A stretch of DNA of 64,000 nucleotides from an uncultured Gammaproteobacteria bacterium (GTDB taxonomy: Bacteria; Patescibacteriota; Patescibacteriia; Magasanikbacterales; UBA922). The position numbers and the translations under genes are program-made. The notes below the pieces were generated by a model, which saw only the letters and a program-made list of their open reading frames with translations, was not told the DNA's origin and did not search any database. Numbering within the stretch: the first letter of the stretch is position 1; every line of letters starts with the position of its first letter. Location of the stretch: contig CAYFPJ010000006.1 of the NCBI GenBank assembly GCA_964344965.1, forward strand, positions 568 to 64,567, given 5' to 3'. This document shows, piece after piece, positions 3,901 through 64,000 of this stretch.

Positions 3901-4016
3901 AACTAGTATATTCTACCATTTTATCACCCAAAAGAAAAGGTCAAAATTTGGGAGAAGACAACATGACAGTCTATTAAAAAATAAAAAAGTCACGTTGGCT
4001 GAACCTGCTATACGCT

Positions 4017-46380: not shown

Positions 46381-46773
46381 ATGCTAAAGGAGGTAGATTT
46401 AACAAGAGAAATAATTGGGATAGCAATGAAAGTACACGGAGAACTTGGTCCTGGATTTAAAGAAGTGATCTATCATCAAGCCATGTTGTCCGATTTGATT
46501 GAGAATGATTTTGATGTAGAAACAGAAGTGGAATTTGATGTAATTTACAAAAATAAAATAATTGGTATATTTAGAATTGATCTATTGGTAAATAAAAAAG
46601 TATTAATAGAGCTAAAGGCAATAAGCGGTGAGATACCTAAAATATTTAAATCACAAGTTGTCTCTTATTTGAAAGCAAGTAATTTGGAAGTTGGTCTACT
46701 GCTTAATTTTGGAAACCCAAGTCTTGAAATAAAACGATTTGGAAACTACAAAGACTATAAAAGATCAGTGTAA
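46381..46773 (+). CDS. GxxExxY family protein, copy 1
   Basis: 130 aa with GIAMKVHGELGPGFKEVIYHQA (G-x-x-E-x-x-Y) and ...IDLLVNKKVLIELKA. It is 126/130 identical to the copy at 59671..60063. Confidence 0.8.
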   Translation: MLKEVDLTREIIGIAMKVHGELGPGFKEVIYHQAMLSDLIENDFDVETEVEFDVIYKNKIIGIFRIDLLVNKKVLIELKAISGEIPKIFKSQVVSYLKASNLEVGLLLNFGNPSLEIKRFGNYKDYKRSV

Positions 46774-59644: not shown

Positions 59645-59676
59645 ACACAGATTACAAGGATTTTATTGGATTACAC
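59645..59676. repeat. Downstream inverted repeat of the GxxExxY cassette, copy 2
   Basis: ACACAGATTACAAGGATTTTATTGGATTACAC is identical to the reverse complement of the copy-1 right flank 46771-46799. Confidence 0.75.
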
Positions 59677-60063
59677 TGATCTTTTATAGTCTTTATAATT
59701 TCCAAATCGTTTTATTTCAAGACTTGGGTTTCCAAAATTTAACAGTAGTCCGACTTCCAGATTGCTTGCTTTTAAGTAAGAGACTACTTGTGATTTAAAT
59801 ATTTTAGGCATTTCACCACTTATTGCTTTCAACTCTATTAATACTTTCTTATTTACCAATAAATCAATTCTAAATAAACCTATTATTTTGTTTTTGTAAA
59901 TTACATCAAATTCTACCTCTGTTTCTACATCTAAATCATCCTCAATCAAATCGGACAACATGGCTTGATGATAGATCACTTCTTTAAATCCAGGACCAAG
60001 TTCTCCGTGTATTTTCATTGCTATCCCAATTATTTCTCTTGTTAAATCTACCTCCTTTAGCAC
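59671..60063 (-). CDS. GxxExxY family protein, copy 2 (GTG start)
   Basis: 126/130 aa identical to 46381..46773. It sits in the opposite orientation with related flanks. Confidence 0.8.
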   Translation of the reverse strand: MLKEVDLTREIIGIAMKIHGELGPGFKEVIYHQAMLSDLIEDDLDVETEVEFDVIYKNKIIGLFRIDLLVNKKVLIELKAISGEMPKIFKSQVVSYLKASNLEVGLLLNFGNPSLEIKRFGNYKDYKRSV

Positions 60064-60896: not shown

Positions 60897-61470
60897 TATT
60901 TTCCCAACTCTTTGGGTGTATGAACTTCTGATGTGCGTCTATAAAGTATTTTTTTAAGTTGGGGTACAATTTTTGAAAGTCGAGGCAATACCATTCAAAA
61001 AAAATCTCTTCGTTAATTTTATCAAATTTTAATAGCATTCCAATTTTTTCTAAGAGAGTTAAAATTGGAAATAGATGCATATTAATTTTATTTATATCTT
61101 CGTCAGTAAACAGAACATTGTCTCGATTTTCTCGTATTCTTGCCTCTACTAGAGTTTTAAATTCTGTTGAAATAAAGATAAAAGATTTAGAAAACTCGAT
61201 AGTACTCAATTTTTCTATAGACTCGAGAGACTTTTCTGTCTTTAATTTATCTTTTGTAAACCAAAAACTTTCTTTTGCCCAATATGCAGTTATAACTATT
61301 GCCATTGCTGAAACAAAAGTAGAAAAGGCTGTAATGTTGTTTGAATTGATATCTATTACAAATTTAGTAAAAAATATACCACCAATAAAGGCAATGAATA
61401 GTAAAGAGCCTAAGCCTAAGCCTAGTAAAAAAATATTATTTCTTTCTAATTGCATAATATATAAATACAA
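60826..61470 (-). CDS. hypothetical membrane protein
   Basis: 214 aa with 2-3 N-terminal TM helices and a charged C-terminal domain. It overlaps the annotated start of the SpoU gene. Confidence 0.35.
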   Translation of the reverse strand: MYLYIMQLERNNIFLLGLGLGSLLFIAFIGGIFFTKFVIDINSNNITAFSTFVSAMAIVITAYWAKESFWFTKDKLKTEKSLESIEKLSTIEFSKSFIFISTEFKTLVEARIRENRDNVLFTDEDINKINMHLFPILTLLEKIGMLLKFDKINEEIFFEWYCLDFQKLYPNLKKYFIDAHQKFIHPKSWENIEYLWNQFKKTKYYDKTKSQKTH

Positions 61471-62194
61471 AAGTCGCCTTCCAAATCCTCTTAAATCTTC
61501 TTGGTTCCCTAATCAAACGATACAGCCATTCTAGACCAATTTTCCTCATCAGTCTAGGTGCTCGTTTGACCTTACCAGCAATAAAGTCAAATGCTCCTCC
61601 TACACCCATCGCCACTTTCACACCAGGTAATTCTGGCAAATATTTATCAATCCACTTTTCTTGTTTGCCATGTCCGAAGGCGACGAAGAGTATATCCGGA
61701 CTGCTCATAGTGATGTCTGCAATCAACTGATCATTCTCCTCTCTATCTAATTGTAACTTATAACTTATAACTTGTAACTTGTTTCCTGGGTGACTGCCTG
61801 CAATCTTTAAGTCTGGAAATTTCTGCCTAATCTCTGTCACCAATTTTTGCAAAGTCTCTTCACTTCCACTGCCAAGAAAGTAGACACCTCTCCCCTGCTC
61901 TTCTGCTAGCTTACAAATGTCTAGCATGAAGTCTGTGCCGGGAATGCGTTTTAATCTAAACCAAGACACCAATTGTAACCCAAAGCCATCACAAATATTC
62001 AAATCACCTTTATTCAGCACTTTTCTAAAATTTTCATCAAGGTTGGCATCAACAAGCATCTCTGGATTTGGGGTATAAATTTTGTGTTGTTCATTATCTT
62101 GCAAAAAATTAGCTACTTTATCTAGAGCTTCTTTTTTACTTAGATTGCTAATCTTTATACCCAAAATTTCAATGAAATTCATAGCATGTACCAC
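61436..62194 (-). CDS. WecB/TagA/CpsF family glycosyltransferase (UDP-ManNAc / ManNAcA transferase type)
   Basis: VYFLGSGSEETLQKL...VAMGVGGAFDFIAGKVKRAP...EWLYRLIREPRR conserved blocks. Confidence 0.85.
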   Translation of the reverse strand: MVHAMNFIEILGIKISNLSKKEALDKVANFLQDNEQHKIYTPNPEMLVDANLDENFRKVLNKGDLNICDGFGLQLVSWFRLKRIPGTDFMLDICKLAEEQGRGVYFLGSGSEETLQKLVTEIRQKFPDLKIAGSHPGNKLQVISYKLQLDREENDQLIADITMSSPDILFVAFGHGKQEKWIDKYLPELPGVKVAMGVGGAFDFIAGKVKRAPRLMRKIGLEWLYRLIREPRRFKRIWKATFVFIYYAIRKK

Positions 62195-62254
62195 AAAATG
62201 TTACATGCTCTATGTTCCATGATTCATGACAATTTGCTATAATCTTAGCAGATA

Positions 62255-62314
62255 TTGACTAATTTTACTAGTGTGATATAGTATTATCACTCTAGTATTG
62301 AGAGTGATAATACT
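62255..62314 (+). promoter_or_regulatory. sigma-70-like promoter overlapping a CIRCE-like inverted repeat (TTATCACTC-N9-GAGTGATAA) upstream of clpB
   Basis: TTGACT (62255-62260), 16-bp spacer, TATAGT (62277-62282). Perfect 13-bp arms AGTATTATCACTC / GAGTGATAATACT (62280-62314). The 9+9+9 core at 62284-62310 differs from the CIRCE consensus TTAGCACTC-N9-GAGTGCTAA at one symmetric position. Confidence 0.55.
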
Positions 62315-62366
62315 CCTTAATTTCAAACTGTAACCTAAATACCTAGAACCTAAACGACCTACACCT

Positions 62367-64000
62367 ATGATCCCCCAAAATTTCACCCAAAAATCTCAAG
62401 AAGCTCTCCAGCAGGCTGCCCAGATTGCTCATAAAAATGGCCAGCCCCAGGTGGAGCCACCTCATTTATTCCTCTCCCTGCTCGAACAAGTAGATGGAGT
62501 AGTTTTGTCTGTTTTGAAAAAATTAAATACCAACATTGAAGAATTGAAGGAAGACACGCAAAAAATGATTGAAAAACTTCCTAAACAAGGCGGAGCTTTT
62601 GTGAGCGGAGGAATGGGTCAAATCATGATGGGTCAGGCCATGATGTACATTCTTCAAAATGCCCAAAATGAATCTAAAAAAATGGGTGATGAATATATCA
62701 GTGTAGAGCATTTGCTTCTGGCATTTCTAACTAATAAAAATCCTGTCAGCGATGCTCTCTCTCGTCAAGATGCCCAGTACAAAGAAGTCTTGAAAGTACT
62801 AGCAGATGTTCGCGGCACTCAGCGCGTTGACTCCCCTACTCCAGAAAGCAAATACCAAGCTCTAGAAAAATATGGTAAAAACTTTACTGAATTAGCCAGG
62901 AAAGAAAAACTTGATCCAGTGATTGGTCGTGATGATGAGATTCGTCGCGTGATGCAAGTCTTGACCAGAAGGACAAAAAATAATCCAGTACTCATCGGTG
63001 AGCCTGGAGTTGGTAAGACTGCCATTGCCGAAGGCTTGGCTCAGAGAATAGTGAATGGTGACGTGCCAGAAAGTTTGAAAGAAAAAGAACTAATTGGTCT
63101 TGACATCGGTGCCCTCATTGCTGGCACCAAATTTCGAGGAGAATTTGAACAGCGCTTCAAGGCAGTTCTGAAAGAAGTGACTGAGTCGAATGGGGAAATA
63201 ATTCTTTTCATTGATGAACTGCATACTATCGTTGGTGCTGGTAGCTCAGACGGAGCAGTAGATGCTTCTAATATGCTCAAACCTGCTCTCGCCCGGGGAG
63301 AACTGCGTACCATCGGGGCCACAACTTTGAAAGAATACCAAAAATATATTGAAAAAGATGCTGCTTTCGAGAGACGTTTTCAGCCTGTCATGGTATTTGA
63401 GCCAGATGAGGAAGATGCTATCGCAGTTCTTCGTGGGATTAAAGAAAAATATGAAGTGCACCATGGTGTCCGTATTACCGACCCAGCAATTGTCTCTGCT
63501 GTAAAGCTCTCTAGTCGCTATATCACAGACAGATTTTTACCAGACAAGGCTATCGATCTTATTGACGAAGCAGCTTCTGCTCTCCGCCTTGAGATAGAGT
63601 CTATGCCTGACGATCTAGATAAAATGAAACGTAAAATGATGAAGCTCGAAATTGAATTGAGAGCATTGAAAAAAGAAAAAGATGCCAAATCAAAAGAAAG
63701 AAGTGGTAAATTAAAAAAAGAAATGGCCAATCTGAAAGAACAAATTGCTGAACTAGAGATGCACTGGAAAAATGAAAAGGAGGTTATTACCAAAATTCGT
63801 GATTATAAAAAAGAAATTGACAAGGCCAAACAAGAGGCAGAAATAGAAGAACGTAAAGGTGACTTACAAAAAGTTGCTGAAATTCGCTATGGAAAAATTC
63901 CTAATATTGAAGAAGCTATCAAGAAATTGGAGAGTAAGCTAGACAGTATCCAAGAAGGACGTGCTATTCTAAAAGAAGAAGTAACAGATCAAGACATAGC
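62367..64000 (+). CDS. clpB: ATP-dependent chaperone ClpB (N-terminal and NBD1 region; continues beyond the window end)
   Basis: Clp_N repeats, Walker [16 protein letters not shown], Walker B ILFIDELH, and the start of the long coiled-coil M-domain (...[13 protein letters not shown]...). The frame is open to position 64000. Confidence 0.9.

Follow-up and report, generated by a model that had tools for sequence, protein, structure and literature searches.

The window, by which we mean the whole 64-kb stretch of DNA that was analysed, ends within a clpB gene, and the promoter of this gene is directly followed by a perfect palindrome, TTATCACTC-N9-GAGTGATAA, that resembles the CIRCE element bound by the heat-shock repressor HrcA. 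The question raised by this locus is whether HrcA-type control extends here to the disaggregase ClpB and, if so, whether the deviation from CIRCE points to an HrcA of divergent specificity; a sequence-only reading of the same DNA had put forward both ideas. The comparisons presented here make it very probable that the palindrome is a functional HrcA (CIRCE) operator controlling clpB in a bacterium of the Magasanikbacteria type (Patescibacteria).

The elements of the locus are listed in Table 1. Two descriptive statements of the sequence-only reading, namely that the palindrome differs from CIRCE by one symmetric change and that it lies immediately after a TTGACT-16-TATAGT promoter of clpB, were confirmed by the coordinates and by a promoter scan, in which the promoter scores 10/12 with an extended -10 (its hexamers being separated by 16 nt). 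Of the 18 arm positions 16 are identical to canonical CIRCE; the arms are 9 nt apart, exactly as in CIRCE, and their symmetry is perfect. The operator starts 1 nt past the -10 hexamer and ends 56 nt ahead of the clpB ATG (62367). Extended to 13 nt, the left arm has four outer nucleotides (AGTA) that share the last three of the -10 hexamer, and the four outer nucleotides on the right (TACT) are unconserved among relatives, as the consensus of 52 orthologous promoters shows nothing conserved 3' of TAA. The predicted transcription start (about 62288-62291, 6-9 nt past the -10) falls within the left arm of the operator.

Table 1. Features of the clpB promoter region and its flanking genes (positions in the window).
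Feature	Position	Strand	Remarks
Divergent WecG/TagA-family glycosyltransferase gene	61436-62182	-	248 aa from ATG 62182; PF03808, E 3e-55
-35 hexamer TTGACT of the clpB promoter	62255-62260	+	From sequence and promoter scan; TTGACA is the consensus across 52 orthologous promoters
Extended -10 TGaTATAGT	62274-62282	+	Hexamer TATAGT at 62277-62282, TG at 62274-62275; consensus of the relatives TGnTATAnT; abuts the operator
Extended palindrome, 13-nt arms AGTATTATCACTC / GAGTGATAATACT	62280-62314	strandless	
Putative CIRCE-type HrcA operator TTATCACTC-N9-GAGTGATAA	62284-62310	strandless	Unique in the window; shared with chaperone promoters of other genomes
Left arm TTATCACTC	62284-62292		
9-nt spacer TAGTATTGA	62293-62301		
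Right arm GAGTGATAA	62302-62310		
clpB, 5' part	62367-64000	+	Full gene of 880 aa extends past the window and is complete on contig L001; Clp_N, AAA, AAA_lid_9

Searching the 64-kb window with up to three mismatches, we found the operator to be the sole match to the variant pattern (0.03 expected by chance) and also the sole match to the canonical CIRCE pattern (at 2 mismatches, with 0.00 expected); a second CIRCE-like site is absent from the window at this threshold. The window has a GC content of 37.5% and a Patescibacteria-like gene content, and its ORF translations include no hrcA, groESL, dnaK or grpE. The encoded ClpB is accepted by the TIGR03346 equivalog model, scoring 1275 bits where 1232.1 are required; the alignment spans positions 1-852 of the 853 in the model. 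Among the genomes retrieved, its closest relatives are found in Candidatus Magasanikbacteria MAGs (72-76% identical); a JGI metagenome contig (L131) encodes a ClpB of 92% identity. A Shine-Dalgarno-like sequence is not seen ahead of the clpB ATG (62340-62366, ending in aaacgacctacacctATG), and several relatives are apparently alike in this respect.

In order of position, the neighbour of clpB is a divergently oriented wecG, separated from it by an intergenic region of 184 nt (62183-62366). This divergent pair is kept in at least 40 relatives, and in some of these, where the gap has grown to 600-1400 nt, the operator remains beside clpB. The promoter scan also reports a weak promoter-like site on the minus strand (GTTACA-16-TATTAT, 9/12) that overlaps the right arm of the operator, which may also act on wecG.

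The conservation of the site was assessed on promoters chosen without reference to it: 80 clpB loci were taken from JGI metagenomes by protein similarity alone, blind to the motif. The set compared consists of 60 loci with usable upstream sequence (59 retrieved plus that of the window, with ClpB 59-92% identical), representing 52 distinct promoters. All 60 carry a CIRCE-type repeat with at most two mismatches to TTANCACTC-N9-GAGTGNTAA, always immediately 3' of a TTGACA-17-TATAnT promoter; among the distinct promoters 36 match it fully, 14 deviate at one position and two at two. The repeat is absent from the 15 control loci, clpB genes of high-GC organisms with usable upstream sequence (ClpB 42-45% identical), where the best candidates show 6-8 mismatches. 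From the 52 promoters we derive the lineage consensus TTAKCACTCT-N7-AGAGTGMTAA, that is, arms of 10 nt. In the column profile of the same promoters the -35, the extended -10 and both arms stand out as strongly conserved, with the inner spacer and the flanks free to vary. The closest relative illustrates this: L131 has the same promoter and arms as the window and carries TAACATAGA as spacer, against TAGTATTGA in the window.

The exact variant TTATCACTC-N9-GAGTGATAA was scanned in one genome per GTDB species (185,579 species, 596 Gb), yielding at least 119 sites, against some 10-25 matches that we estimate for chance by our own arithmetic (18 specified bases in 596 Gb). The flanking ORFs were classed by local BLASTP against reference sequences, with representatives spot-checked by Pfam. 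Among the 119 matches listed, 106 lie directly upstream of groES/groEL, clpB, hrcA, dnaK or hsp20: 49 precede groES(-groEL), 26 clpB, 23 hrcA, four dnaK and four hsp20. Four further cases also concern hsp20, two sites precede clpP and one pspC, two are found at a contig edge in lineages where groES is the target of other sites, and four are unexplained. Most of the matches listed are from Patescibacteria (Magasanikbacteria, Peribacteria, Saccharibacteria, Nomurabacteria, Minisyncoccia and others).

The same variant is thus found ahead of groES, hrcA and dnaK in many Patescibacteria, including genomes that also have the clpB site, which is the recurrence that had been proposed as a check. In single genomes the clpB site is paired with an hrcA site (L011/L031, L092/L058 and L103/L109) or with a groESL site (L025/L010 and L094/L102). 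Such pairing is typical of a regulon whose repressor controls its own gene. Together with the motif-blind clpB loci, the scan supports the earlier suggestion that HrcA-type control would extend to clpB.

Outside the classical targets, the variant occurs ahead of clpP in Doudnabacteria and Saccharibacteria MAGs and ahead of a PspC-domain gene in a Paceibacterota MAG (loci L054, site 2-28; L069, 2593-2619; and L026, 25-51), which suggests that in some Patescibacteria the HrcA regulon may reach past the classical chaperones. Outside the Patescibacteria, the exact T/T variant (T at position 4 in both arms) is kept upstream of groES in Rhodobacteraceae (L006, L059, L061, L090, L105, L108, L111, L115, L117), in Salinibacter/Salinivenus (L015, L027, L053, L116, L118, L120) and in Helcococcus/Peptoniphilaceae (L072 and L083, Helcococcus). 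Given its retention ahead of groES in several such clades, T at position 4 has been fixed repeatedly outside the Patescibacteria.

It might be argued that the palindrome arose by chance, or is a non-functional repeat such as a mobile-element remnant, since short AT-rich palindromes are common in DNA of this GC content. This is hardly conceivable in view of the above: at most 0.03 matches are expected per window, the arms are kept at the same promoter position in all 52 distinct orthologous promoters while spacer and flanks drift, and elsewhere the motif recurs specifically at chaperone genes.

The single letter by which each arm departs from textbook CIRCE (position 4) deserves separate attention. 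Over the 52 promoters, the left/right combination at this position is T/A in 17, G/C in 15, T/C in 10 and G/A in 10, giving 32 complementary and 20 non-complementary sites. T and G are therefore about equally frequent and the two arms are nearly independent (Fisher p = 0.16). Hybrid sites are common and are found at hrcA itself as well (L123), and close relatives differ in their position-4 state. Because of these observations position 4 is best regarded as degenerate (K) in this lineage, which argues for relaxed recognition, with one repressor that would accept either base, and against a switched specificity. The earlier proposal of a divergent HrcA specificity was consequently overstated; judged from the promoters compared, the one-letter deviation from textbook CIRCE is the normal condition for this Patescibacteria lineage.

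The position-4 data also bear on a reading in which the inverted repeat acts in RNA, as a 5'-leader hairpin (attenuator, intrinsic terminator or mRNA-stability element). CIRCE of Bacillus subtilis has been suggested to affect mRNA stability, and a consensus scan lists 62280-62314 among terminator-like elements (14 pairs, a loop of 7 nt). Nonetheless, the independent variation of the arms fits protein half-sites, and the 20 promoters with non-complementary bases argue against a selected hairpin. Moreover, the -10 ends at 62282 and the predicted start falls within the left arm, leaving a transcript without a complete left arm; a leader starting at 62289 folds no better than shuffled sequences (z = -0.18). 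The stem has only four G-C pairs out of 14 and its tail (CCTTAATTTC) lacks a U-tract, unlike a Rho-independent terminator, and Rfam returned no family at threshold, the hairpin giving rise only to microRNA-like noise below it. An RNA-level function is, on balance, very unlikely.

A protein that reads the site should then be looked for in the lineage. The ORFs that follow the hrcA-type sites have a length of about 226 aa (222-233), against about 340 aa in characterised HrcA, and in a database search the best 120 of 4,148 proteins with E <= 1e-20 (P0001-P0120) are all of about 226 aa. This short HrcA occurs in Magasanikbacteria and in other Patescibacteria (for example L031, L039, L058, L109, L114 and L127). 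It passes Pfam PF01628 with 36.9-60.2 bits (cutoff 22.2), covering only profile positions of about 95-215, and its N-terminal wHTH aligns to residues 15-121 of Thermotoga maritima HrcA (1STZ). For an AlphaFold model of the short HrcA (pLDDT 90) 1STZ is by far the best PDB match (E 9e-11), with a TM-score of 0.75 when normalised by the query and 0.54 when normalised by the target. The equivalog cutoff of TIGR00331 (197.2 bits) is missed, with 158.7 bits for P0104 and 150.2 for P0001, because a segment of about 100 residues is missing.

In an alignment to B. subtilis HrcA, the missing 90-100 residues fall between the wHTH and the C-terminal half, and the inserted dimerisation domain seen in T. 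maritima HrcA is probably part of the absent segment. Given the Pfam assignment, the fold match to 1STZ and the missed TIGR00331 cutoff, these are HrcA-family proteins and not standard equivalogs; with about 100 residues of characterised HrcA absent, DNA binding by the short form is assumed. Most of them are annotated as 'hypothetical protein'. The short HrcA is thus systematically missed by standard annotation, and a lookup by product name would have led to a wrong rejection of the HrcA reading.

The atypical length of this HrcA and its score below the TIGR00331 cutoff could be taken to favour another candidate, namely a different repressor whose operator merely resembles CIRCE, or else CtsR or HspR (HAIR element); clpB is under CtsR in several Firmicutes and under HspR in Actinobacteria. 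We give this little credence. Neither the CtsR box (RGTCAAA-NAN-RGTCAAA) nor HAIR (CTTGAGT-N7-ACTCAAG) has a match with up to three mismatches in the intergenic region 62183-62366, and window-wide their counts are at or below chance. The motif itself agrees with CIRCE at the positions and spacing described above, and it precedes an hrcA homologue in at least 23 genomes, which is the classical autoregulatory layout, in addition to groES and dnaK. By every sequence-level criterion applied, the element is CIRCE.

At the level of the lineage, the question whether an hrcA is available to act on clpB can be answered positively, as the short form is present with the motif ahead of its gene; for the source genome the evidence is an operon from the same metagenome project. 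Proteins of the window are also found on contigs of ENA project PRJEB17505 (runs ERR2281800, ERR2281801 and ERR2281803), and contigs of this project, from the overlapping set of runs ERR2281801, ERR2281802, ERR2281803 and ERR2281805, encode the short HrcA P0104 (L127/L128). Its operon has the order hrcA, NUDIX-grpE, hsp20, dnaK, and an exact TTATCACTC-N9-GAGTGATAA is placed between promoter and ATG, abutting the ATG. The source patterns of P0104 and the window proteins match (NCBI, Logan and ENA; four contigs each). The P0104 contig has a GC content of 42%, against 37.5% for the window. The two correlate in tetranucleotide composition at 0.92, and single chunks of the window at 0.93-0.98 with the remainder of it. 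Inspection of both gene lists revealed no single-copy gene duplicated between the window and the P0104 contig. It is plausible that the operon comes from the same genome as the window, and we infer that the source genome has an hrcA gene. An argument for the origin of P0104 based on nearest relatives was discarded since HrcA diverges too fast, and P0010 was rejected as the HrcA of the source organism: it belongs to other samples and its site is a T/C hybrid.

Some further observations concern the hrcA operons. GrpE of the P0104 operon is fused to an N-terminal NUDIX domain (299 aa, PF00293 + PF01025; L127 4683-5582, L128 1401-2300). In many Magasanikbacteria a DnaA-box-like nonamer, TGTGGATAA (on the other strand TTATCCACA), lies next to or within the -35 region of the hrcA promoter (L013, L039, L040, L058, L067, L091, L100, and L127 at about 3935-3950), and yidC is found a few genes upstream of hrcA in L123 and L127. 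The hrcA gene could adjoin the replication origin, or DnaA could influence hrcA; such a nonamer is absent from the clpB promoter of the window.

Taking HrcA as the protein that acts on the site, a mechanism can be proposed in which binding by HrcA, induction by heat and a titration loop involving GroEL are inferred. The two half-sites, which start 1 nt past the -10 hexamer and span the predicted start, would be occupied at normal temperature by a dimer of the short HrcA (about 226 aa), and bound HrcA would block RNA polymerase. With the predicted start inside the left arm, the dimer would occlude -10/+1, the classical geometry of repression. Upon protein-folding stress HrcA would lose its activity; in the classical model GroEL keeps HrcA active, and unfolded proteins titrate GroEL away. 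The disaggregase ClpB would then be induced alongside groESL and the hrcA-grpE-hsp20-dnaK operon.

The proposed system shares its main features with CIRCE of the B. subtilis type, found in many bacteria (TTAGCACTC-N9-GAGTGCTAA at the hrcA-grpE-dnaK and groESL promoters in B. subtilis): 9-nt arms with a 9-nt spacer, a position at or just after a sigma-70-type promoter, hrcA, groESL and dnaK among the targets, and a wHTH repressor of the HrcA family. It differs in three respects: the lineage has either G or T (K) at position 4, with T in both arms of the site described here; the target is clpB, which is absent from the B. subtilis regulon; and the repressor, at about 226 aa, is without some 100 residues between the wHTH and the C-terminal half.

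Among the Epsilonproteobacteria (Helicobacter, Campylobacter), HrcA is also shorter than the 340-aa standard and represses chaperone operons (NF003033 / PRK03911, 264 positions), and the short HrcA of the lineage matches this model weakly (56-66 bits against a cutoff of 248). The HrcA boxes of Epsilonproteobacteria depart from CIRCE much further than the sites of the lineage do. Their HrcA acts together with HspR (PMC7464140).

Control of clpB by HrcA/CIRCE is in itself already known from Mollicutes (Mycoplasma, Spiroplasma), where the regulons include clpB and lon (PMC5138195). The same source calls CIRCE 'extremely conserved in Bacteria' and states that functional sites in Mollicutes tolerate up to two mutations (PMC5138195). 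The likeness is considerable: in both cases a genome-reduced bacterium has CIRCE on its clpB promoter, HrcA is apparently the main or only heat-shock regulator, and the regulon is wider than dnaK and groESL. Mollicutes belong to an unrelated phylum, however, and have the canonical G at position 4, where the lineage described here has T as freely as G.

A CIRCE on a chaperone promoter is textbook biology, and in this sense the site is real but largely ordinary; the twists worth note are found at the level of the lineage, namely the degenerate position 4 in an otherwise highly conserved element and the short-form HrcA. Our literature search for HrcA/CIRCE in Patescibacteria, CPR or Saccharibacteria, including binding and expression data, returned no relevant reports, and a search for the literal variant sequence gave only unrelated papers among the matches listed. 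Neither did we find in the literature a described transcription-factor regulon in Patescibacteria (candidate phyla radiation). The operator provides a sequence-level handle on gene regulation in this group, and an HrcA regulon that includes the disaggregase ClpB becomes predictable from sequence alone in thousands of uncultured genomes.

Tentatively, and with slightly more doubt than conviction, we propose that a minimal HrcA of about 226 aa (the wHTH joined to the C-terminal half of the HrcA domain) may govern the heat-shock response throughout the Patescibacteria, acting on the relaxed CIRCE of the lineage consensus and serving an enlarged regulon as the single stress regulator of reduced genomes. 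If true, the regulon would comprise groESL, hrcA-grpE-hsp20-dnaK and clpB, with clpP and pspC added in some lineages, and it would have been overlooked because the short HrcA stays below the NCBI equivalog cutoff and is mostly annotated as 'hypothetical'.

Finally, a few observations were made on the surroundings of the locus and on the genomes compared. A number of MAGs titled 'uncultured Gammaproteobacteria', 'Candidatus Udaeobacter' or 'Kapabacteria' (L004, L008, L011, L022, L033, L093, L094 and others; P0014) encode a ClpB that is 64-70% identical to that of the window. As they show promoters of the Magasanikbacteria type and the short HrcA, their organism names look wrong. About 220 nt past the clpB stop, beyond the window, contig L001 carries an IS200/IS605-type Y1 transposase gene (PF01797, 3955-4413). 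Within the window a 130-aa ORF of the PDDEXK_3 family (PF13366) is present in two copies on opposite strands, 13 kb apart (46381-46773 on the plus strand and 59671-60063 on the minus strand). With a protein identity of about 95%, this pair represents either a recent duplication or a small mobile gene.
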